Assembly (NCBI GenBank): GCA_963931155.1
Contig: OZ006978.1
Location: 1,300,692-1,364,691, forward strand
Source: an uncultured Clostridia bacterium
Lineage (GTDB): Bacteria; Bacillota; Clostridia; TANB77; CAG-508
Length of the DNA stretch: 64,000 bases
Direction of reading: 5' to 3'
This document shows positions 5,556 through 60,901 of the stretch, piece by piece. The notes under the pieces are model-generated. The model ran no database searches and was not told the DNA's origin. It was given only the letters and a program-made list of their open reading frames with translations. A program made the translations under genes and the position numbers. The stretch's first letter is position 1. Each line of letters starts with the position of its first letter.

Positions 5556-5673
5556 TTTATTGTGGTGGGCGTTTGGCGTTATAGGCTTAAACGTCCATTT
5601 GCGAGAAATTGATTTTTAAAAACGGCTAATTAAATAGCACAAAAATTAGTAAGTAGCTTGTATAATGTGCTTT

Positions 5674-5745
5674 TGTCAGTTTTAGGGACAGGCTCTTTTC
5701 TGCCAAGTTTGTCAGCTTTGGGGACAGGCTTCAATCTACAAAATT
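5674..5745 (+). repeat. two tandem copies of a ~36-bp repeat unit (tgtcaNNtttNgggacaggctc...tgccaaNtt)
   Basis: Direct repeats read in the rpsO-pnp intergenic region. Same family as the array at 15051-15278. Confidence 0.6.
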
Positions 5746-5882
5746 TATAATTTATTGCTATGGACAAAAAATCAAAATATAACAAAAGCATAGTATAGAG
5801 GTTACAGCTAATTAAGGTGCTATTAATTAAATATAAAAAAGAAAGGAGTAGTATGATAATTTTATTATCATACAAATAGAAA

Positions 5883-8003
5883 ATGGTTAAAACTTATAGT
5901 ACAGAATTAGCAGGAAGAAATTTAAGTATTGAAACAGGTAAAATAGCAGGACTAGCAAATGGAAGCGTAGTAGTAAGATATGGAGATACAGTTGTAATGG
6001 TAAATGTTACAGCTTCGAAAGAGCCAAGAGAAGGAATAGACTTTTTTCCACTTTCAGTAGATTATGAAGAAAAATTATATTCAGTGGGAAAAATTCCTGG
6101 GGGATTTAACAAAAGAGAGGGAAAACCATCAGAAAAGGCAATACTTACATCAAGAGCAATAGATAGACCTCTTCGTCCTCTATTTCCAAAAGATTTTAGA
6201 AATGATGTATGTGTTACAGCAACAGTATTATCAGTTGAGCAGGATAATAGTCCAGAAGTTTGTAGTATGATTGGTGCAAGTGCTGCACTTTCAATTTCAG
6301 ATATACCATTTGGAGGACCAACTGCAGCAGTAGCCGTTGGCTGGGTAGATGGAGAAATAGTTATTAATCCAACAGTAGAGCAAAGAAAAAGAAGCAAATT
6401 AACTGCAACAGTTGCAGGAACATTAGATAAAATAACTATGATAGAAGCAGGAGCAGATGAAATACCTAATGAAAAAATGTTAGAAGCAATTGAAAAAGCT
6501 CATATTGAAATTAAAAACATTTGTAATTTTATATCGGATATAAAAGCAGAAATAGGAAAGCCAAAATTTGAATATAAATCATTTGCAGTAGATCCGGAAT
6601 TTTATCAAGATATTGTTGAGCATTTCAAAGATAGAATGTATCAAGATGTACAAGCTACAGATAAAGAAGTAAGAGATGCAAATATAGATAAAATAACAGA
6701 AGATATTACAGCTTATGTTATAGAAAAATATGGCGAAGAGGCAGAAGAGGAGAGAAAATCAGACATAGCAGACAGTATACATGACTTAGAAAAAGCATGT
6801 GTAAGAGAGATGATATTAAAAGAGCACAAACGTCCAGATGGTAGAAAAATTGATGAAATAAGACCTCTTTCATGTGAAGTTGGAGTACTTCCAAGAGTAC
6901 ATGGAAGTGCAATTTTCACAAGAGGACAAACACAAGTAATGTCAATTGTAACACTTGGAATGAAAAGTGAAGAACAAATATTAGATGGAATTGATGAAGA
7001 AACAGAAAAAAGATATATGCATCAATATAATTTCCCTTCATATTCAGTAGGTGAAGCAAGACCATCAAGAGGTCCAGGAAGAAGAGAAATAGGGCATGGA
7101 GCTTTAGCAGAAAAAGCATTAGTTCCAGTATTACCATCAGAAGAAGAATTTCCATATGCAATAAGAGTAGTATCTGAAGTATTATCTTCAAATGGATCAA
7201 CATCACAAGCAAGTATCTGTGGTAGTACATTAGCATTAATGGATGCAGGTGTTCCTATTAGAAAGCCAGTTGCAGGAATTTCAACAGGACTAGTAACAGA
7301 TAAAGAAGATACAAGTAACTATATAATGCTTACAGATATTCAAGGAATAGAAGACTTCTTTGGAGACATGGACTTTAAAGTAGGTGGTACAAAAGATGGA
7401 ATAACAGCAATACAAGTTGATATAAAAATAGATGGTTTAACATATGACATAATAAAAGAAGCATTTGAAAGAACAAAAGTTGCAAGAGATTATATATTAG
7501 ATGAAATAATGCTTCCTGTTATAGATAAACCAAGAGCAGATATTTCTAAATATGCACCAAGAATAAATACAACACAAATAAGTGTAGACAAAATAAAAGA
7601 TGTAATAGGACCTGGCGGAAAAATGATTAATAAAATTATTGAAGAAACAGGAGTAAAAATTGATATTGAAGAGGATGGCAAAGTTTGTGTTTATTCAAAT
7701 GATCCAGAAAGTGGAAAAAAAGCATTAAAAATGATTGAAAATATTGCAAGAGAAATTGAAGTTGGTGGAATATATGATGGTATAGTTACAAGAATAATGT
7801 CATTTGGAGCATTTGTAGATGTAGGAGGAGGAAAAGAAGGATTACTTCATATATCGAAAATTTCAAATAAAAGAGTTGAAAAAGTTGAAGATGTACTTTC
7901 TGTAGGTGATGAAGTTACAGTAAAAGTATATGAAATAGACCATCAAGGAAGAATAAATTTAACAATGAAAGACTTAGAAGCAGGAAATAAAGAAGAAGAA
8001 TAG
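5883..8003 (+). CDS. pnp: polyribonucleotide nucleotidyltransferase (PNPase)
   Basis: 706 aa with two RNase PH domains, KH and S1 domains. Canonical N-terminus and conserved motifs. Confidence 0.95.
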   Translation: MVKTYSTELAGRNLSIETGKIAGLANGSVVVRYGDTVVMVNVTASKEPREGIDFFPLSVDYEEKLYSVGKIPGGFNKREGKPSEKAILTSRAIDRPLRPLFPKDFRNDVCVTATVLSVEQDNSPEVCSMIGASAALSISDIPFGGPTAAVAVGWVDGEIVINPTVEQRKRSKLTATVAGTLDKITMIEAGADEIPNEKMLEAIEKAHIEIKNICNFISDIKAEIGKPKFEYKSFAVDPEFYQDIVEHFKDRMYQDVQATDKEVRDANIDKITEDITAYVIEKYGEEAEEERKSDIADSIHDLEKACVREMILKEHKRPDGRKIDEIRPLSCEVGVLPRVHGSAIFTRGQTQVMSIVTLGMKSEEQILDGIDEETEKRYMHQYNFPSYSVGEARPSRGPGRREIGHGALAEKALVPVLPSEEEFPYAIRVVSEVLSSNGSTSQASICGSTLALMDAGVPIRKPVAGISTGLVTDKEDTSNYIMLTDIQGIEDFFGDMDFKVGGTKDGITAIQVDIKIDGLTYDIIKEAFERTKVARDYILDEIMLPVIDKPRADISKYAPRINTTQISVDKIKDVIGPGGKMINKIIEETGVKIDIEEDGKVCVYSNDPESGKKALKMIENIAREIEVGGIYDGIVTRIMSFGAFVDVGGGKEGLLHISKISNKRVEKVEDVLSVGDEVTVKVYEIDHQGRINLTMKDLEAGNKEEE

Positions 8004-8016
8004 TTTATAAAATAGG

Positions 8017-8140
8017 AATTGTGCCAATGGAGACAGTGAAGTGAACCCAAATTATTAGACAAAAAAGTTTAATAAGGAGGGTTCATTTTCATGTGTACTG
8101 AACCCATTGGCACAATTGTTTTATATAAAATTAAAAAAAC
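8017..8140 (+). terminator. large compound hairpin terminator downstream of pnp
   Basis: Perfect 14-bp outer stem (aattgtgccaatgg / ccattggcacaatt) enclosing competing inner pairings (gtgaaccc, gggttca, ctgaaccc). Followed by a T-rich tract. Confidence 0.55.
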
Positions 8141-8279
8141 GAGCCCGTTTTCTTTTGTAAATTTTAAAAAAATTAATTTTTTATAAAAACTGTTGTAAAA
8201 AGTTGTAATAATTGATATACTAATGGTATTAAAAAAGCGTAACATGCTTTTTCTTAGAATTCTTTAAGGAGGTAAAGTA

Positions 8280-8729
8280 ATGGAAGATAATAAAGAAATA
8301 AATGAAGTTACAAACAATGTAGAAAATGAAGGAGAGGTAACACTTGAAAATAATTCAAACATAAAAATAGCAGATGACGTTATTGCGGTTATTGCCGGAG
8401 CAGCAGCTTCAGAAGTGCCAGGAGTTTCTTCAATGGCAGGAGGTTTCGCAGGAGGAATTTCTGAAGTGTTTAGTGGTAAGAAAAACTTTGCTAAAGGTAT
8501 TAAAGTGGAAGCTGGAGAAAAAGAAACTAGAATAGATGTTAACATAATCGTGGAATATGGAGTAAGAATTCCAGATGTTGCTTTTGAAATTCAAAATAGA
8601 GTTAAAAAAGCTGTTGAAAGTATGACTGGACTAAAAGTTTTAGATGTAAATGTTCATGTTCAAGGTGTTAATACTGATGCAAATAATGTAGAAGAAATGA
8701 AACAAGATGGTTCTAATAAACCAGAATAA
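8280..8729 (+). CDS. Asp23/Gls24 family alkaline shock protein
   Basis: Asp23-type sequence (ADDVIAVIAGAAASEVPGV...). SD AAGGAGG. Confidence 0.85.
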   Translation: MEDNKEINEVTNNVENEGEVTLENNSNIKIADDVIAVIAGAAASEVPGVSSMAGGFAGGISEVFSGKKNFAKGIKVEAGEKETRIDVNIIVEYGVRIPDVAFEIQNRVKKAVESMTGLKVLDVNVHVQGVNTDANNVEEMKQDGSNKPE

Positions 8730-15058: not shown

Positions 15059-15278
15059 AATGTCAGTTTAGGGGACAGGCTCTTTAGTGCCATTTATGTC
15101 ACTTTTAGGGACAGACTATACCTTAAATTTATCTATATCACTTTTAGGTAACAGGCTACTAAAAGAAAATCTATTATAACTGAGTAGAGCCTGTCCCCAT
15201 TGATGACAAGTCTGGCACAAAAGAGCCTGTCCCCATTGATGACAAGTCTGGCAGAAAAGAGCCTGTCCCTTTTGGTGA
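15051..15278 (+). repeat. array of the ~36-bp repeat: three forward then three inverted units, forming a long imperfect palindrome
   Basis: Units tgtcagtttaggggacaggctc... followed by three reverse-complement units gagcctgtccccattgatgacaagtctggca. Two of the reverse units are identical. Confidence 0.65.
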
Positions 15279-15307
15279 CAAGTTTGGCAAAAGCACTTGA
15301 AAAAAGT
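15279..15307 (+). terminator. rho-independent terminator
   Basis: Hairpin aaagcactt-gaaaaa-agtgcttttttc. Confidence 0.6.
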
Positions 15308-19411: not shown

Positions 19412-19500
19412 GAACAAAGCGACCTTGGTCGCCCTTTGTTCTTGCCAATTTGAGTATCCAACAGCAATGAGGAAATCTCAAAAGCAATGGTGATTATAAC
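19412..19500 (-). repeat. core of the interspersed MITE/PATE-like element (inverted orientation) with terminator-like hairpin
   Basis: Reverse complement matches the core found at 28544-28639 and 32672-32767. Hairpin gaacaaagcgacc/ggtcgccctttgttc immediately after the mutS stop. Confidence 0.55.
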
Positions 19501-28474: not shown

Positions 28475-28510
28475 AAAAGCTTAAAGATAAAAAATCTTTA
28501 AGCTTTTTTA
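28475..28510 (+). terminator. rho-independent terminator
   Basis: Stem agcttaaagat/atctttaagct followed by tttttt. Confidence 0.65.
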
Positions 28511-28511
28511 T

Positions 28512-28672
28512 GTAATAGGAAATTTCTCCGAAATTCCTATTACATAAAAAGGCTATAATCGCTATTGCCTTTGAGATTTCCTCCTTGACGTCGGAAACTC
28601 AAATCGGCAAGAACAAAGGGCGACTGCGTCGCTTTGTTCTGTAATAGGAAATTTCTCCGAAGTTCCTATTAC
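28512..28672 (+). repeat. complete MITE/PATE-like element: 32-nt palindromic hairpin + 96-nt core + 32-nt hairpin
   Basis: gtaataggaaatttctccgaaattcctattac at both ends. Core ends with gaacaaagggcgac-tgc-gtcgctttgttc. Confidence 0.6.
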
Positions 28673-31947: not shown

Positions 31948-32475
31948 ATGAGTAGTGTAGTTGTGAGGTTTAAAGAGGAGATGACTTTTCCTCACGTAGA
32001 AGATGCAGGTAAAATCAAATGGCGGGGAGGTTATATCCTAGATGATGTCACAGGAATCCTGGAAGGATACATCGAGGAAGACATCAATGGGGTTCCCGCT
32101 GATGAACAGCGCCGTGCATGGATTTTAGGAATTTGCAAAGGTGCTAGATGGTGCTTCAACTGGTTCGGAAGTAAGAACTTTGACTTCCCTATCACAATCA
32201 GATTCTTTGATGGCAATTTGAACGAGGGAATTCTAGTAGCACTAGGGTCGAAAGACGATAGAAACATTGATATGATTGAAGTCGGCTATTCGACTATTCA
32301 AGCGACAAGACTATCCGGAGAGTGCACAGAAGCAAAAGAAGTAATCAAGAGCATCGTTGAAGATATTAAGGACAGTATCTATCTCCCTGAATTTGACATA
32401 ACAGCTATTGCCCTAAATGATATTGATAATTGGGCTAAATCCTACTACCGACGGAAGACGGGACGTCCTTGGTAA
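31948..32475 (+). CDS. hypothetical protein, 175 aa, GC-rich, no recognised family
   Basis: About 43 % GC. Strong SD AAAAGGAG. Followed by a cctcctttttaggagg hairpin. Confidence 0.6.
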   Translation: MSSVVVRFKEEMTFPHVEDAGKIKWRGGYILDDVTGILEGYIEEDINGVPADEQRRAWILGICKGARWCFNWFGSKNFDFPITIRFFDGNLNEGILVALGSKDDRNIDMIEVGYSTIQATRLSGECTEAKEVIKSIVEDIKDSIYLPEFDITAIALNDIDNWAKSYYRRKTGRPW

Positions 32476-32551
32476 CTAACGGTGCTAACAAAAAAAGAAC
32501 AATGTTCTTTTCCTCCTTTTTAGGAGGTTTTTCTTTTTGTCTTTTTAATGA

Positions 32552-32767
32552 TATAATAGGAATTCCTTCTTATAGTCGGAAACCTAAATTGGCAAGAACA
32601 AAGAACAAGGTTGCCCCCTTGTTCTTTGTTCTTAGTTCTGTAATAGGAAATTTCTCCGAAATTCCTATTACAGAAAAAGGCTATAATCGCTATTGCCTTT
32701 GAGATTTCCTCCTTGACGTCGGAAACTCAAATCGGCAAGAACAAAGGGCGACTGCGTCGCTTTGTTC
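32552..32767 (+). repeat. MITE/PATE-like element: diverged core + 32-nt palindrome + full core, abutting the ssrA 3' end
   Basis: Same hairpin and core as at 28512-28672. The partial core keeps the terminal stem through covarying changes. Confidence 0.6.
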
Positions 32768-32782
32768 AAATCAAAATGTAAT

Positions 32783-33142
32783 TGGTGGAGATGAGGAGAG
32801 TCGAACTCCTGTCCAATAATCCTTCCACATGAACTTCTCCGAGTGCAGTTTGTTAAAAAAATTCCCTAAAAAGAAATTAACAAACAAATTTGTTTTTTAG
32901 GTAGTCAAATAAATACCCTTCATTCCTATGACACGGAAATAAATTCGTTTCCCACATATATGACGTTTTATCTAAAGCTGTGGGGAGCTAAAGAAAAACG
33001 AGCTACTAATCTTAAGCAGCGTAAGCTAATTCTTTATTATCAGCGTTTATATTTAAATTTCGCTTTTTTATAGTGGCCAAAGCGACCATCCACTACTCGC
33101 TATTCATACTTCTGGGTTATTGTCGAAACCAAATACATCCCC
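32783..33142 (-). ncRNA. ssrA: tmRNA (ssrA)
   Basis: On the - strand: 5' GGGGAUGUAUUUGGUUUCGACA, 3' GGAGUUCGACUCUCCUCAUCUCCACCA (T-arm and acceptor). Internal tag ORF reads ...GCU GAU AAU AAA GAA UUA GCU UAC GCU GCU UAA. Confidence 0.9.
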
Positions 33143-33307
33143 ATAAAAAGTACAATAATAATTATACTATAATTATAAAAAAAAAACAAGATATATGATT
33201 ATTACAAACTAAATATTATTTGTAATGTTCATATGATTTATTTACTTGAAAAAAGTATTTGAAAATGTTATTATAATTATGTAAATTAATTATAGGGAGA
33301 AAATCGA

Positions 33308-34768
33308 ATGCCAACTAAATTAGATGAAACAGGAGATAGAAGAAAACAAATATTAGAATTATTAAACGAACAAGGTAGAACTATAGAAGAAGTTTATACT
33401 TTTTTTAGTAATGTACCTCATAATGTAATTGAAAGGGATATAAGATATCTTATTAGAAATAAATTATATCAGCCATATAATATAATATTGAGTAGAAAAA
33501 TAGAAAATGATAATAGTAGAAGTGGAGAAAAAACAGATACAAATAGTGAAACTGAAGGCAACGTTGAGAACACAGAAAAAGAAGATAATTTAACAAGACA
33601 AGGAAGACGACCAACAAGAAGGAAAAAAAAGAAATCACCATTTGATGCTAAAACAAGAAGAGAGAAAGTATTACAAAGATTAAAAAACACTTTAAAAACG
33701 CAAGAACAAATTGCATCAGAATTAGGAGTATCAAAGGGAGTAATTTCTACTGATATACAATTTTTTATAATAAGTGGAATTATAACACCAGAAGAACATA
33801 AAACTAGAAAAAAACAAATAAAACAATTGGCTAAACATAAAAAATCACCCCAAATAGAACAAAGAAGGAAGCAAATATTAGAGTTAATACATAGTACAAA
33901 TATGACACAGAAACAAATAGGAAAAGAAATAGGTTTATCGCAAACAGCGGTTTCGAAAGAAATAAGATATTTAGTAAGTATGGGATTAATATCACAAGAA
34001 ACTTTGGAAAATAGAAAAAAACAATACAAAAGAAATAAAAAAGTAAGAAGTATTACACCAAAAAAGAAAAAAGAGCGAAAAGCATCGAATATGAAAAGAA
34101 AGAGAATAGGGCAAGTGTTGTATTTAATAAAAAATAAATATATGGCTCAAAGTGAGATAGCTGTATTACTAGGAGTATCAAGAAAAACTATATGTAAAGA
34201 TGTAGAATACTTAGTGGAAACAGGTATGCTAAAAAAAGAAGAAGTACAAAGTGCGGCAAAAAAAAGAGTACAAATAAGAAGAACAAGAGTAATTGAATTA
34301 ATAAGAAGAGGAAAATTACCTAAAGTTTTAAGAAAGAGTATTGCAGAAGAATTAGGTGCTGGAACAGCTACTATTTCTGTGGATGTAAAAGTTCTAATAG
34401 AGCAAGGTTTGATTGAAGAAGACGAAAAAGGAGAGTTAAGAGTAGTAGAATCTAAGATTGCAGAGAGTGAATTACTATCAGATGCATTATATTTAGAACA
34501 ACAAGAACAAGAGGAAGATAGTTTAAGTATGACTTCAGAAGAAAAAGAATGTTTATTGATGATGTTTAGACAAATAAGAAAATTGTCATTTGGGGGAAAT
34601 TTAGATAAGGCAATTAGAAATCTAGGATTGGTAAAAGAAATGTTTGGTTTTTCTAAAGAAAAATTAAAACAATTAGAAGATATAGAAAGTTTTTTAAGAG
34701 AAGAAAGCAATAAAAAACAAAAAAATGCTGACAGAAAAGCATCTGGAGAGGAGATAGGAGATAGATAG
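33308..34768 (+). CDS. protein built from five tandem DeoR-like winged-HTH modules separated by K/R-rich linkers
   Basis: Repeated R(R/K)KQILEL(L/I)... followed by HTH (TQEQIASELGVSKGVISTDIQ; TQKQIGKEIGLSQTAVSKEIRYL; AQSEIAVLLGVSRKTICKDVEYL; SIAEELGAGTATISVDVKVL). Confidence 0.65.
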   Translation: MPTKLDETGDRRKQILELLNEQGRTIEEVYTFFSNVPHNVIERDIRYLIRNKLYQPYNIILSRKIENDNSRSGEKTDTNSETEGNVENTEKEDNLTRQGRRPTRRKKKKSPFDAKTRREKVLQRLKNTLKTQEQIASELGVSKGVISTDIQFFIISGIITPEEHKTRKKQIKQLAKHKKSPQIEQRRKQILELIHSTNMTQKQIGKEIGLSQTAVSKEIRYLVSMGLISQETLENRKKQYKRNKKVRSITPKKKKERKASNMKRKRIGQVLYLIKNKYMAQSEIAVLLGVSRKTICKDVEYLVETGMLKKEEVQSAAKKRVQIRRTRVIELIRRGKLPKVLRKSIAEELGAGTATISVDVKVLIEQGLIEEDEKGELRVVESKIAESELLSDALYLEQQEQEEDSLSMTSEEKECLLMMFRQIRKLSFGGNLDKAIRNLGLVKEMFGFSKEKLKQLEDIESFLREESNKKQKNADRKASGEEIGDR

Positions 34769-34832
34769 ATTGTGTTTTATGTGAAATTGTGGTAAAATAT
34801 AATATAGGTACCCAAACATTGGAGGTATTACA

Positions 34833-35300
34833 ATGGAAGATCTGGAACTGGCAAATGTGGTTCTGGAAACAGTCCAACCGTGTGACGATGCAGAAGAGTT
34901 CTTCTACATCGCACAAGAAGGAGGTGTTAGAGAGTACGTCGGATTCATGTATCCAACTAGTCTGGAAAAGGCACGAGAAATCTTGGAGTTCTTGTGCGAT
35001 ATGAGATTCGAGTGCTTCAAGATTGTTGAGGAAGATACAGGTGACATGGTCGGAATCATTTTCGGCGACCCCCTAACCAGTACTATACTGGATGTTTCAT
35101 ACTTCATCGGTGATGAGTATCGATGCATGGGGTACTGCTCATCAGCTGTACGGCAGTTCGAAGAGTATCTGAGGGAGGAGACTTGCTACACAACCATGAG
35201 ATTCTTCGTAAGAGAAGATAACGCGGAGTCTCAGGGCGTGATGAACAAGCTTGGAATCCCTAATGCTTTCGGCAATGTCTACATGCTCGACCTTGACTAA
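34833..35300 (+). CDS. GNAT family N-acetyltransferase, GC-rich
   Basis: About 47 % GC. GNAT motifs (VGIIFGDP, YFIGDEYRCMGYCSSAVRQFEEYL, EDNAESQGVMNKLG). SD GGAGG and a TGG-extended -10. Confidence 0.7.
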   Translation: MEDLELANVVLETVQPCDDAEEFFYIAQEGGVREYVGFMYPTSLEKAREILEFLCDMRFECFKIVEEDTGDMVGIIFGDPLTSTILDVSYFIGDEYRCMGYCSSAVRQFEEYLREETCYTTMRFFVREDNAESQGVMNKLGIPNAFGNVYMLDLD

Positions 35301-35310
35301 CACTTCTCAA

Positions 35311-35352
35311 GCAGGGTGTCATGCTCCCAAAAGAGCATGGCATCCTGTTTTA
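35311..35352 (+). terminator. GC-rich terminator of the GNAT gene
   Basis: cagggtgtcatgctc-ccaaaa-gagcatggcatcctg followed by tttt. Confidence 0.6.
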
Positions 35353-44168: not shown

Positions 44169-44298
44169 ATAGAAAAAATATAACCTAGTTTTTAAAAGGA
44201 TTAGGTTATATTTTTTATGCTTTCTGAATATAAATATATATAGGAAACTTGGACAATTAGAAATTCAAAAAGTGTATCATAAGGAAGGAAAGCCAAAG

Positions 44299-45426
44299 AT
44301 GATTAATTTAGCTGTAATAGAATTAAAAGATATTATAAAATATTTAATAAAAATAACAATTATAATATTACTTGCTGTAGGACTTACAAAATTTTTCTCA
44401 AGTTTTAAAACAAAACTAAATATAGAAAAGAATTCATTTCTTTCCTGTTTAGATGTAGTTATACCTAGCATGGGAGATATAAACAAAACTGAGCAAAGTA
44501 CAAAAAAGGTAGATAAAGCAGAAATAAAACCTCTAAAAATGGTACTAGAAACTGAATTAGGACTTATTGATACATTAGAAAAAAATGGAGAAAAAACAGA
44601 AGAAAAGAAAGAGGAAAAAAATGAAAATACAGAAGAATCAAAAGACGAAAAAATTGAAGAGGCAAAAACAGGTTTAAAAACAGAAGTTATAGAAACTAAT
44701 GTGCCTGAAAAATTTACCACTGAATACAATGGAGTAAAAATAAGAAACGAAACAGATAACATAAAATTAACAAAAGAAATGTTAAAACCAGATATTAGTT
44801 TAAATAATAAAAATATTATAATATATCATACACATACATGTGAAAGTTATACAAAAACAAAAAAATATACATATAAATCATCAGGAAATTTTAGAACAAC
44901 AGATATAAATTATTCAGTAGCAAGAGTGGGAACAGAACTTACAAAGTACTTAGAACACTATGGATATAACGTAATACATGATACTACACTATACGATTAT
45001 CCATCATATAGTGAATCTTATGATAGATCATTAAAAGGTGTAGCAGAATTGTTAGAAGAAAATAAAGATACAGATATTTTATTTGATATACATAGAGATG
45101 CAATAGGAGATAGTAAATATGCACCAACAGTAAAAATAGGAGAAGAAGAAGCAGCTCAAATGATGTTTGTAATAGGAAGTAATGGAGGAGGAAGCAAGCA
45201 TGATGATTGGAACAAAAATTTAAAATTTGCAGTAAAAATACAAGAAAAAGCAAATGAAATGTATCCAGGTTTATTTAAACCGATAATCTTAAGAGATAGC
45301 AGATACAATCAACAATTAGCAGAAGGTGCAAGCATTATAGAAGTAGGAGCTACAGGAAACACACTAGAACAATGTTTAAATAGTATGAAATATTTATCAA
45401 AAGTAATACAAGAAGTTTTGAAATAA
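44299..45426 (+). CDS. spoIIP: stage II sporulation protein P (SpoIIP)
   Basis: N-terminal TM and SpoIIP-like amidase domain (IIIYHTHTCESY). Start at the ATG after AAGGAAGG. Confidence 0.7.
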   Translation: MINLAVIELKDIIKYLIKITIIILLAVGLTKFFSSFKTKLNIEKNSFLSCLDVVIPSMGDINKTEQSTKKVDKAEIKPLKMVLETELGLIDTLEKNGEKTEEKKEEKNENTEESKDEKIEEAKTGLKTEVIETNVPEKFTTEYNGVKIRNETDNIKLTKEMLKPDISLNNKNIIIYHTHTCESYTKTKKYTYKSSGNFRTTDINYSVARVGTELTKYLEHYGYNVIHDTTLYDYPSYSESYDRSLKGVAELLEENKDTDILFDIHRDAIGDSKYAPTVKIGEEEAAQMMFVIGSNGGGSKHDDWNKNLKFAVKIQEKANEMYPGLFKPIILRDSRYNQQLAEGASIIEVGATGNTLEQCLNSMKYLSKVIQEVLK

Positions 45427-54245: not shown

Positions 54246-54515
54246 TTGACATAATGTGCTTATATAAGTTATAATATGAATTGTATTTAAATAAACAAAA
54301 ACATAAATGAGACAAAGTAAAATAAGGGTTGTTTACAGAGAGGAATAGTTATAAGCTGAAAGCTATTCTAAATAAATGTATTTGAAAAACTACCTCATTG
54401 TTTCTAGAAAAACTAGACGTATGCTTGCGTTAAAAGTTAATTAAGTTAAATAAAGGGTGGAACCGTGTATAAAAAAGCACCCCTCTAATAGTTACTATTA
54501 GAGGGGGCTTTTATA
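54246..54515 (+). promoter_or_regulatory. promoter (TTGACA-18-TATAAT) and T-box riboswitch leader (Thr specifier) of thrS
   Basis: AGAGA stem I motif, specifier region aaaaACUAcc, T-box aaaGGGTGGaACCGtg, terminator agcacccctctaatag/ctattagagggggctttt. Confidence 0.7.
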
Positions 54516-54517
54516 TG

Positions 54518-54647
54518 TAATAGGAAATTTCTCTGAAATTCCTATTACATATAAAGGCTATAATCGCCATTGCCTTTAGGATTTCCTCCTTATAGTCGGA
54601 AACCTAAATCGGCACGAACAAATGGTGACTTCGACCTTTTGTTCTCC
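54518..54647 (+). repeat. MITE/PATE-like element (hairpin + diverged core) inserted between the T-box terminator and the thrS start
   Basis: gtaataggaaatttctctgaaattcctattac followed by a core of about 100 nt related to 28544-28639. Confidence 0.55.
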
Positions 54648-58312: not shown

Positions 58313-60757
58313 ATGGCTAGAACTGCTAAAACAGTAAAAACAACAGAGGCTACAAAAACTACAAAAACACCTAGAACTACCAAAAAAGTCACAAAAAAAG
58401 AGCCAGATAATGAAGTAAATAGCAAATTGAAATATATTGGACTTAATTTAAACAGAATACCAGCATTTTTAAAAGAACATGAAAGCCTAAATTTCAGACC
58501 TTCTAAATCGTATGATGATACAATTTATAAAGTATATAGATATGTTAATATAAAAAATATAGAAATTTTAATAACACCACAAGATAGACTAACTGACATA
58601 AAAGAAAAATATAAATTAGCAAGCCCAATTCGTGATTACTTGGATAAAAAGAATATAGAAAATGCTGAAAAACATGAAACTTTTATAAAGCTAATTGAAA
58701 CTATTAACGAAACAAGAATTGAAGAAATAGCCAAAGAACAAGAAAAATTAAACGAAAAAATACCATATGAAGTAAAATATCCAAACAATTATATATGGCA
58801 AGTATATTATTCAGATTATGCAAAAAAATATTTTATGCTTGCAACTACAAAAGAACAAGATAATAACGCAATGTTTTACTTGTTAAAAGAACAAATAGCA
58901 CATGCAAGAGCTAAAAAAGGAAATTATATATTTATTCCAATAAGTCATTTAGAATATTCTGGATTATACTTAACAAAATCAGAAATTTCAGATATTGAAA
59001 ATTATTTATGGTATTTTACAAAAGAATGGCCAAATGTATATGAGATATTTGATAAAGACAATAATCTATTTATTAAAGTTGTAGGAATTACAAATATATA
59101 TGATAAAATAAAAACCACATATAGTATAACTTTAGATTCTAAAGAAAAATCATTAGAGTTTTACAAATTGCTAAAAGCCATGTTTATACTAGCAACAGGC
59201 GCAAAGGAAGAATTTAAATTTGTAACAAAGATAAATCCAGAAGGCGAGTTAGAGTTTTGGCATAATAATCATTTAATTAAATATGCAAATCTTTCTGAAT
59301 ATATAAAATTAGAGTATTTAGATAAAATTGATAGACTAAAAAAAGAAATAAAAGATGGAGCAGAACTTGAAAGAAAACTAAGTAAATTTAAAATAGTTAT
59401 TGAAGAATTAACACAAGATTACTTACAAAGGCAAAGACAAATTGCGACATTTCTAGAATGTAAAAAAACTTTTTTTGGTAAAGTTAAATATTTCTTTAAA
59501 AAGAAAAAAGACAATAAAGATGTTCGAATACTAAAAGAGCAAAAAACTTTAAATAGAAGAAATGAAAGTAAAGGTGTAAAAGACGAAGCACAAGACGAAA
59601 CATTAAAAGAATTATATATGTTAAAACAACAATATACAATAGAGGATTTAATTAATATATGTGCAAAACTAGAAGAAATAGTTAAGAAAAATACAAATTT
59701 AACATTAGATATCAAAGCAATAGAAACAAAAAAAGATATATTAGCTAAAAAAATTGACAATGCTGATTTATACATAAAAGAAATAGACAAACACAAGAAG
59801 AGCATTTTTGAATTTTGGAAATTTACTAGCAAAGATGAGGTACAAACCCTACATGAAGCAGAAGAACAAGAAAAAGCAGAGCAAATAAAAATGAAAAAGT
59901 ATTTCGATTATCAAGATGATTTAGAAGATTTAGGAAAAATTGTTGATGAAGTTCAAAGAAGAAAATTATCAAAAAATGAAACAGATGCAATATTTGCTTT
60001 AAAACAAGTGCCAGCATCATTTAAAGAATTAAATGATGAAATAGATGCAGAATTACTTGAAATAAAAGAAAATAAAACAGTAAAACCAAAAAGAAAAACT
60101 GGGAAGAAAGAAAGTCAATTAGAAAAGGATTTAAACAAATTAAAAAAAGAATACGAAGATAATATAGAAGTAATAAATAGTAAAGATTTTGACATTTTTG
60201 GTAGCTTAGTCGAAGACAAAACTAAACTAAAAAGCATTAACAATGAAAAACATAGAGAAATAGAAAAAGACAAATTTAAAATATTAAATATAAGTTTAGA
60301 CACAAATATTAAAACATATAAAGAAAACTTAGAAAGCTATTTATCACTTATAAAAGAATCATTAAATAAAATAAAATCACCATATGATATGTCTGTATAT
60401 TGTGTAAATGATAAAAAAACAGTTCAGGGAATACGAATATTTAATATGAATCCAAAAACAGCTTTAAAAAATGAACTTACAGGGAAAAAAGAAAAAATAA
60501 CATTATGTAAAATAAATATAAAAGAAAATACACCAGCAGTATTTTATAGCAATATAATATTTTATGATAATTATAATAAAACATTACCAGTAGGAATGAA
60601 CTTATCATCAGAAATAGTGTTAGATGTAAACAAATTAAAATTAAAATTTGTAAAAGAAGATACATTTTATATGAATTACAAAGTAAATGAATTTGACTTT
60701 GCAACAAAAGAAATAGAAATTTATGAATATAATGCAGATTATGAAACAAAAGAATAA
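58313..60757 (+). CDS. large K/E-rich hypothetical protein (814 aa), Thr/Lys-rich N-terminus, coiled-coil C-terminal half
   Basis: SD GAAGGAGG, host-like codon usage, no recognisable catalytic motif. Confidence 0.6.
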   Translation: MARTAKTVKTTEATKTTKTPRTTKKVTKKEPDNEVNSKLKYIGLNLNRIPAFLKEHESLNFRPSKSYDDTIYKVYRYVNIKNIEILITPQDRLTDIKEKYKLASPIRDYLDKKNIENAEKHETFIKLIETINETRIEEIAKEQEKLNEKIPYEVKYPNNYIWQVYYSDYAKKYFMLATTKEQDNNAMFYLLKEQIAHARAKKGNYIFIPISHLEYSGLYLTKSEISDIENYLWYFTKEWPNVYEIFDKDNNLFIKVVGITNIYDKIKTTYSITLDSKEKSLEFYKLLKAMFILATGAKEEFKFVTKINPEGELEFWHNNHLIKYANLSEYIKLEYLDKIDRLKKEIKDGAELERKLSKFKIVIEELTQDYLQRQRQIATFLECKKTFFGKVKYFFKKKKDNKDVRILKEQKTLNRRNESKGVKDEAQDETLKELYMLKQQYTIEDLINICAKLEEIVKKNTNLTLDIKAIETKKDILAKKIDNADLYIKEIDKHKKSIFEFWKFTSKDEVQTLHEAEEQEKAEQIKMKKYFDYQDDLEDLGKIVDEVQRRKLSKNETDAIFALKQVPASFKELNDEIDAELLEIKENKTVKPKRKTGKKESQLEKDLNKLKKEYEDNIEVINSKDFDIFGSLVEDKTKLKSINNEKHREIEKDKFKILNISLDTNIKTYKENLESYLSLIKESLNKIKSPYDMSVYCVNDKKTVQGIRIFNMNPKTALKNELTGKKEKITLCKINIKENTPAVFYSNIIFYDNYNKTLPVGMNLSSEIVLDVNKLKLKFVKEDTFYMNYKVNEFDFATKEIEIYEYNADYETKE

Positions 60758-60759
60758 AA

Positions 60760-60792
60760 AAGGATATCAATTTGATATCCTTTTTTATTCGG
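60760..60792 (+). terminator. rho-independent terminator
   Basis: aaaaggatatcaa-ttt-gatatcctttttt. Confidence 0.65.
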
Positions 60793-60901
60793 TGTATTTT
60801 TCTATTAATAATATAATAATAAAAAAGTGCAAAAAAGAGATTGACAAAACGAACACTTGGTTGTAAAATATAACAAACAAATTTTCTATAGGAGGATAAA
60901 A

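Follow-up and report, generated by a model that had tools for sequence, protein, structure and literature searches.

Here, we present an analysis of a repeat family that is interspersed in a 64-kb stretch of DNA from an uncultured Clostridia bacterium (hereafter, the window; G+C content of 28.8%). The window contains five copies of a core of ~90 nt and four copies of a 32-nt palindrome, here referred to as H, which are distributed across four sites (A to D). A degenerate 25-nt core pattern matched at 28593, 32578, 32721, and 54598 on the plus strand and at 19435-19459 on the minus strand, and a search for the 32-nt palindrome matched at 28512, 28641, 32640, and 54517, each with at most one mismatch. 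Neither pattern had a single match in 100 dinucleotide shuffles each, and none is expected by chance. The same repeat families were recovered in the window by a repeat finder, and a scan with a covariance model did not reveal a sixth core in the window. All copies listed in the original prediction exist and have the layouts described there, and most of its description is accurate; its count of four is correct for the sites, while the number of cores is five.

At site A (28512-28672), the layout is H-core-H. The intrinsic terminator of the upstream gene (28476-28511, plus strand) has a T-run that is continuous with the first H (GTAATAGGAAATTTCTCCGAAATTCCTATTAC; 28512-28543, to which, as for all copies of H, no strand is assigned). 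This H has a flanking T-run and A-run that lengthen the hairpin to ~45 nt, and it lies within a 129-nt block that is missing from some strains. An A-run linker and core A follow (28544-28640, plus strand; covariance model score of 113.5 bits), with stem-loop 1 at 28567-28608 and a terminal hairpin composed of an A-tract, a GC stem, and a T-tract at 28611-28639, both on the plus strand. The second H (28641-28672) has one A-to-G change and represents the resident H, which is the sole H in strains L076 and L079. Site B (32550-32767) consists of a truncated core, H, and a second core. Core B1 (32550-32639, plus strand; 48.3 bits) is truncated at its 5' end and lacks the left part of stem 1, and its terminal stem is extended to a perfect 15 bp; H (32640-32671) has a flanking CT...AG that extends the pairing; and the A-run linker with core B2 (32672-32767, plus strand; 113.1 bits) is nearly identical to core A and lies 15 nt away from the 3' end of the tmRNA gene, which is convergent with it (32783-33142, minus strand). 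Site C (54517-54645) has the layout H-core, with an H that carries one C-to-T change in the loop (54517-54548) and a linker with core C (54549-54645, plus strand; 103.8 bits), which belongs to the AGG/CCU subfamily of stem 1 and ends 24-33 nt upstream of the thrS start codon. Site D (19412-19497, minus strand; 97.3 bits) is an inverted core without H that is located directly after the mutS stop codon. Besides these copies, the window contains a second repeat family, i.e., short tandem arrays of 36-nt units (TGTCAGnTTTGGGGACAGGCTCTTTTCTGCCAAGTT), which are located in two intergenic regions (5673-5766, plus strand; 15061-15293, inverted); the number of units varies between strains, with four in L103 versus two in the window. 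Moreover, the PNPase-Asp23 spacer (L103 9546-10001, equivalent to 8003-8280 of the window) is ~180 nt longer in one strain, and the insert in L103 is different from the core, with long inverted repeats at its ends (ggggacgggcttgttttgtaaa ... caaaacaagcccgtcccc).

Using the core pattern to scan species-representative genomes, we found 60 loci, of which four (L001, L026, L054, and L056) were dropped as chance matches within unrelated sequence. The remaining 56 true matches are distributed over 28 assemblies, in agreement with the proposal of an interspersed, non-coding repeat family with many further copies elsewhere. The host assemblies, which represent gut bacteria similar to Clostridium sp. 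CAG:452, carry the label uncultured Clostridia or Clostridium sp. (including Clostridium sp. CAG:452), and the host organisms possess sporulation genes. Individual assemblies contain up to nine loci, and the complete 1.57-Mb genome OZ007016.1 contains five. When the covariance model was run over 483 kb of these loci, only four additional cores were detected, and two additional sets of strains, for the regions 1-17 kb and 32-52 kb of the window, yielded no new cores. The core family was absent from the phage records and viral contigs searched, and the plasmid records searched contained nothing beyond one weak hairpin match. A comparison with Rfam, as suggested in the original prediction, assigned the element to no family: At the gathering score, the only matches in the window were the tmRNA and a tRNA-Trp, and at E ≤ 10, the element region yielded chance hairpin matches only. 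Altogether, the libraries searched contain no description of the family, but the element itself is of a known kind. The identity of cores outside the pattern columns is 0.81 within genomes versus 0.72 between genomes; only 12 of 37 copies have their nearest relative within their own genome, and an identity of up to 98% is seen for some pairs of cores from different species. Judging from these comparisons, several core subfamilies coexist and are common to multiple species. We also considered strict concerted evolution, which we rejected because the homogenization within genomes is only partial and subfamilies are shared across genomes. The high identity across species and the few nearest relatives within the same genome could mean that the copies are selected for a function in the host and have not spread recently.

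From 5' to 3', the core consists of an A-run followed by GGCT, a −10-like box, stem-loop 1, a two-base linker, and the terminal hairpin. Stem-loop 1 (GCCTTTGAGATTTCC...GGAAACTCAAATCGGC) forms a long hairpin that has bulges and is rich in pyrimidines at its top. In the terminal hairpin (GAACAAAG-GGCGAC-loop-GTCGC-TTTGTTC), an A-tract, a GC stem, and a T-tract are arranged as in a two-way intrinsic terminator; in our alignment of 56 cores (A1), this hairpin appears as GAACAAAG-GG-CGAC, a loop, and GTCG-CTTTGTTC. In this alignment, standard pairs are present in 94.7% of the cells (stem 1, 96.7%; terminal stem, 92.9%) compared with 32-50% when the partners are slid by 1-3 columns, and both sides of a pair have changed in 42 cells compared with 8.6 in shuffles. 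Compensatory exchanges are present at columns 29/60 (GC to AU in eight sequences), at columns 30/59 (AU to GC in seven sequences), at the loop-closing pair 44/50 (CG to AU in ten sequences), and at five pairs of the terminal stem. At the level of the alignment, the two core hairpins are supported by compensatory changes, and the covariation noted among the few copies in the window holds for the core stems in 56 sequences; the presence of a palindrome module is confirmed as well. Columns 53-77 were fixed by the search pattern, and the invariance there is, therefore, partly a matter of ascertainment; the core is also highly conserved outside these columns. The structure of the core is conserved and includes invariant unpaired bases. 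An extra 5' hairpin in the core (GGC...GCC) was dropped as it is only 65% paired.

The unit of the repeat is 86-130 nt long and non-coding; no small ORFs are conserved across copies on either strand. The H+core unit is predicted to fold into three independent hairpins on either strand and folds far better than shuffles (z = −8.6 and −7.2). In the three hairpins, the numbers of G·U and A·C mismatches are 13 versus 7, 6 versus 10, and 11 versus 9, i.e., about equal. Because the two are equally common, the covariation singles out no particular RNA strand. Thus, although the compensatory changes were originally taken as selection on RNA structure, a constraint at the level of DNA, or on both strands, fits equally well, and the symmetric mismatches are compatible with hairpins that form in single-stranded DNA or with a requirement for both strands to pair. 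Truncated copies and inverted modules occur among the cores. In one copy (L020 1544-1600), the terminal hairpin has the opposite orientation to that of the remaining core (GAACAAAGCGACCTTGGTCGCCCTTTGTTC), and the two-base bulge is on the other arm; this arrangement points to a flip at the palindrome at the level of DNA.

H is a perfect AT-rich palindrome with arms of 13-20 bp, a loop of 3-9 nt, and a flanking T-run and A-run. Depending on the genome, the arms comprise GTAAT, TCTAAT, TATACT, AGTTAT, or TTGAAT followed by AGGAAAT. The two arms vary in concert from genome to genome, and the loop differs in length (3-9 nt), so that the spacing of the arms varies, which argues against a dimeric operator with fixed spacing and for a hairpin. 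In three loci (L029, L057, and L039), an unrelated palindrome takes the place of H, and H is absent from four others (L043, L027, L050, and L060) as well as from copy D of the window. In a metagenome scan with the exact H of the window, we found one locus only, which is from a different organism (contig L061; G+C content of 39%). There (2130-2262), 38 identical bases of H are followed by an unrelated, GC-richer structured stretch of ~75 nt and a clean terminator. The presence of H without the core in L061 indicates that H is a separable module, which also occurs in another organism, and H may partner with other cargo. Another conserved palindrome (ttattgtataggaaaaatcgacagatttttgctatacaacaaggtta) that is not attached to the core was present in three genomes (L036 6278 and 6385; L050 579; L039 3769).

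Based on crude ORF calls, the positions of 47 copies could be classified. Thirty-three copies are co-oriented with both flanking genes, eight are opposed to both, five are located between convergent genes, and one between divergent genes. Hence, 33 of 41 copies (80%) are co-oriented (~1e-4 by normal approximation), and 14 of the 47 are antisense or between convergent genes. GC skew, with which we attempted to split replication bias from transcription bias, was uninformative because the skew follows gene direction. The usual order is the upstream gene, its own terminator, H sharing the T-run of this terminator, the core, and the next gene, and for 18 of 42 sense copies, only 12-45 nt separate the end of the copy from the Shine-Dalgarno (SD) sequence and start codon of the next gene. 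In antisense copies, the terminal hairpin tends to abut the stop codon of the preceding gene, as in the case of mutS at site D. Consistent with what the window alone had suggested, the copies are, therefore, located at gene 3' ends or in a leader. The leader is that of thrS. Using a permissive Rfam search, we detected a T-box leader with a terminator at 54295-54512 (plus strand); the T-box at 54295-54487 has a score of 71.5 bits (E = 1.4e-15), which is below the Rfam gathering score of 93 and explains why it was missed in the default scan, and the terminator is at 54480-54506. H and the core of site C sit between this terminator and the thrS start codon. Read-through transcripts of the essential thrS gene would, therefore, have to cross the element, arguing that its sense orientation is probably not a strong block to transcription. 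The copy upstream of thrS is syntenic in L034, where stem 1 belongs to a different subfamily and H is different.

The 18 sense copies that end shortly before an SD sequence and start codon, together with the conserved structure and its invariant unpaired bases, would be compatible with a cis-acting leader, i.e., a riboswitch, an attenuator, or a translational operator, for the gene downstream of each copy. We consider this highly improbable. The downstream genes lack a common function, and the 20 downstream proteins examined are unrelated (ThrRS, GyrB, RpoB, MnmE, PrmC, SpoIIP, SpoIIIAA, ScpB, a PBP, NAD synthase, and others), which excludes a riboswitch or metabolite-sensing regulon. Moreover, the copies that are antisense or between convergent genes have no such position, thrS is already under the control of its own T-box, and the presence of copies varies between strains.

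It was also proposed that the copies encode a small RNA, based on TATAAT and a CCUCC anti-SD-like stretch. According to this idea, the copies would be multicopy genes for a trans-acting sRNA similar to LhrC or csRNA, with a TATAAT promoter, a 5' stem-loop with the CCUCC anti-SD seed, and a terminator. The order of the −10 box, the stem-loop, and the terminator fits a gene of ~80 nt, several copies have TGnTATAAT, one has a −35-like hexamer, and the sequence is highly conserved across species. However, TATAAT is present in some copies only; many copies, and nearly all copies of some genomes, instead have TGAAAT, TACAAT, or a shortened form (TGAACG/TAAACG), and in some of these variants, the key A or T (at positions 2 and 6, respectively) is missing. 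Site A itself has no promoter-like site. In addition, CCUCC is mostly located within stem 1, where columns 36-37 and 44 are paired in 89-100% of the sequences and two unpaired pyrimidines are left. Because the box is not conserved and CCUCC is mostly base paired, a free-standing sRNA gene is unlikely. The strong orientation bias relative to the flanking genes, the many ends 12-45 nt before start codons, and the lack of an excess of G·U on the supposed RNA strand also argue against it, and the gain and loss between strains, the truncated copies, and the inverted modules are typical of repeats and not of regulators. We, therefore, regard an sRNA gene as very unlikely.

To compare strains, we used exact-protein look-ups to obtain the corresponding region of additional strains that belong to the species of the window. 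At site D, the difference is an exact presence/absence of 86 nt: L071 lacks 19412-19497 and reads gtcgtcttaaAAACAAATAG, compared with gtcgtcttaa[GAACAAAGCGACC...GGTGATTAT]AACAAATAG in the window. In the orientation of the element, the flank TTTGTT precedes ATAATC..., and the element ends with ...CTTTGTT. The TTTGTT before the element matches the element's own conserved 3' end and is the only junction feature there; this match could equally reflect a microhomology deletion. At site A, the spacer of five strains is 95 nt long and has just one H, and that of the window and four other strains is 223 nt long with H-core-H. The two states differ by 129 nt (28512-28640), i.e., exactly one H+core unit, and the single H of L076 and L079 has the substitution of the window's second H at this site. 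Based on the flanking haplotypes, the filled strains group with one of two empty groups, and one gain would, therefore, be more parsimonious than two losses. Recombination between the two copies of H could also cause this polymorphism by loss of the unit. At an additional site (E), L066 has H+core after the terminator of an acetyltransferase gene, and this unit is absent in the window (~35300-35340) and in five other strains. In comparisons across species, L019 and L048 have copies in intergenic regions whose orthologs in the window (~44170-44300 and 60757-60840) are empty. Inserted copies gain substitutions between strains, as expected of neutral passengers. The data fit the idea that the element is, or recently was, mobile. 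Several contigs stop inside the element. A contig of the window's species (L064 3728-3900) exits the tmRNA locus within the core and enters the dapB locus via a core-H junction; this is either a real recombination between copies or an assembly chimera at the repeat. The gene content on either side of the tmRNA gene is also strain variable (window 32475-35300; L062, L071, and L077): L071 lacks the gene for a 175-aa protein, and in L062 and L077, a 582-aa ORF without a Pfam match replaces the HTH and acetyltransferase genes, which suggests that the tmRNA gene is an integration hotspot.

In line with the terminator-like hairpin of the original prediction, the terminal hairpin was called terminator-like in a consensus scan on the antisense strand at site A (28632-28620, minus strand) and site D (19419-19432, plus strand); on the sense strand, there was no terminator call at these two sites. 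These calls are relevant for the possibility that the copies are terminator or insulator cassettes recruited by the host, which would be kept for transcript punctuation by the terminal hairpin (and H) and would spread mainly by recombination. Antisense copies abut stop codons without another terminator, as for mutS, for which the empty allele has none; the very high conservation of the core across species and the contig that switches locus at the repeat would also be in line with such cassettes. However, most sense copies are located behind a good terminator of the upstream gene and would be redundant, the T-tract is interrupted (TTTGTTC(T)), and efficient termination in the sense direction is hard to reconcile with a copy in the essential thrS leader. 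Moreover, this model does not assign a role to stem-loop 1 and H, both of which are conserved. Taken together, we find it unlikely that the family as a whole consists of such cassettes. A terminator role of the terminal hairpin is plausible, especially for antisense copies. By sequence alone, termination in the sense direction should be about as good, which is awkward with the position in the thrS leader.

With regard to how the element moves, its ends are informative. Terminal inverted repeats are lacking from the unit; its left end (ATGTAATAGG..., or ATAATC... in copies that consist of the core only) is not complementary to the right end (...GTCGCTTTGTTC), and only H is self-palindromic within the unit. 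For copies other than that at site D, we observed no flanking direct repeats. The 3' end is constant, the 5' extent is variable (H+core, or core only from ATAATC), and the 5' flanks are T-rich in the three junctions that are readable (including TTTGTT|ATAATC and TTTTTT|AT-H). In the absence of terminal inverted repeats, a clear target-site duplication, or matching end hairpins, the element fits neither a classical MITE, a term that applies only loosely, nor an IS200/IS605 palindrome-associated element (PATE), as the original prediction had considered. More specifically, in the case of an IS200/IS605-type PATE or a REP-like element mobilized by a RAYT-type Y1 transposase, the hairpins would be recognition sites in single-stranded DNA, and the element would insert on the 3' side of a short T-rich target. 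The lack of terminal inverted repeats and of a clear target duplication, the hairpins at or near both ends of the unit, the symmetric mismatches expected of DNA and not RNA, and the T-rich 5' flanks are as expected for such an element, and the 80:20 orientation bias could reflect strand-specific insertion. However, IS200/IS605 elements have similar hairpins at their ends, whereas H on the left and the terminal stem on the right are unrelated in sequence; the GTAG tag of REPs is lacking; and the IS605-associated motifs in Rfam do not match. Moreover, in several strains, the Pfam annotations of the genes in a ±10-kb range around the window's copies include no HUH transposase, Y1, or TnpB family, and none of the loci with Pfam-annotated genes had a transposase. 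None of the 56 matches is a longer element with these ends or has a coding insert that splits the core, and both core halves are present in all of them. Finally, copy D is opposed to the other four within a single co-oriented 64-kb stretch. For these reasons, we judge this type of element to be quite unlikely.

The constant 3' end, the variable 5' extent, the T-rich flanks, and the gain of H-core-H next to a resident H are compatible with hairpin-directed single-strand transposition or with site-specific integration at H, among several mechanisms. By analogy with integron attC sites, H could be the attachment site of a hairpin-directed integration system, in which a circular or single-stranded [core-H] cassette and a resident H would give rise to H-core-H and alternating arrays; H itself would cross genera and be combined with differing cargo, as in L061. 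A Campbell-type integration predicts a remnant of the left arm of H after cores, and such a remnant was not consistently present after the cores. We consider it distinctly unlikely that H has this function.

We favor a different explanation, namely that the copies constitute a clade-specific family of small, modular, non-coding, non-autonomous dispersed repeats that are built from hairpins, turn over at the strain level, and are spread by an enzyme encoded elsewhere, and we regard this as probable, although with only modest confidence. According to this model, units would be gained and lost on the time scale of strains and would lodge immediately after gene terminators or stop codons, mostly along the direction of transcription, and could stack head to tail with H and core alternating. 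The enzyme encoded elsewhere would recognize the hairpins as DNA. Once inserted, copies would be passively transcribed within the mRNAs of their neighbors. In the sense orientation, they would be tolerated even within the thrS leader, and in the antisense orientation, the terminal hairpin would probably terminate the gene that it abuts.

Such a family has precedents. Among published elements, SPRITE, bcr1, and the mosaic BOX and BIME elements resemble it most closely (PMC3184786). SPRITE is a small, non-coding dispersed repeat of a Firmicute that has a predicted fold similar to an intrinsic terminator and is biased to gene 3' ends (PMC3184786). The Clostridia element is similar in size, position, and its terminator-like hairpin; however, a sequence relationship is not established, the Clostridia element has, in addition, the long bulged stem-loop and the separate palindrome module, and it is mostly co-oriented after the genes' own terminators and not between convergent genes. 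bcr1 of the Bacillus cereus group is ~155 bp and non-coding, has two independent stem-loops with compensatory changes and a strain-variable distribution, and has no known transposase (PMC3184786). Both elements are non-coding, vary between close strains, and have two stem-loops that are kept by compensatory changes; they differ in that bcr1 is flanked by 5-bp direct repeats, which we did not observe for the Clostridia copies, and their sequences and host clades are unrelated. The modules of the Clostridia element are present alone, together, or alternating (H, H-core, H-core-H, and core-H-core), similarly to boxA/B/C of BOX and to REP with linker motifs in BIME; however, BOX modules pair with each other whereas the Clostridia modules each fold alone, and the modules and hosts differ. 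With classical MITEs (Correia and RUP), PATEs, and REP-RAYT systems, the Clostridia element shares that it is short, non-coding, multicopy, intergenic, strain variable, and rich in hairpins. In contrast to classical MITEs, its unit has no terminal inverted repeats, and no duplication of TA or other sequence was observed; in contrast to PATEs and REP-RAYT systems, its end hairpins are dissimilar, and GTAG and, within ±10 kb of the window's copies, a cognate transposase are lacking.

The mechanism of mobilization is the only part of these findings that could prove to be more than ordinary, given a unit that has a separable palindrome and that lacks terminal repeats and clear duplications. From a practical perspective, the copies break metagenome assemblies and may yield chimeric contigs, and they are also markers for strain typing. 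Altogether, our findings document an undescribed repeat family in poorly known, uncultured gut Clostridia with small genomes, in which copies are located at sites that must be transcribed, including an essential leader under T-box control.
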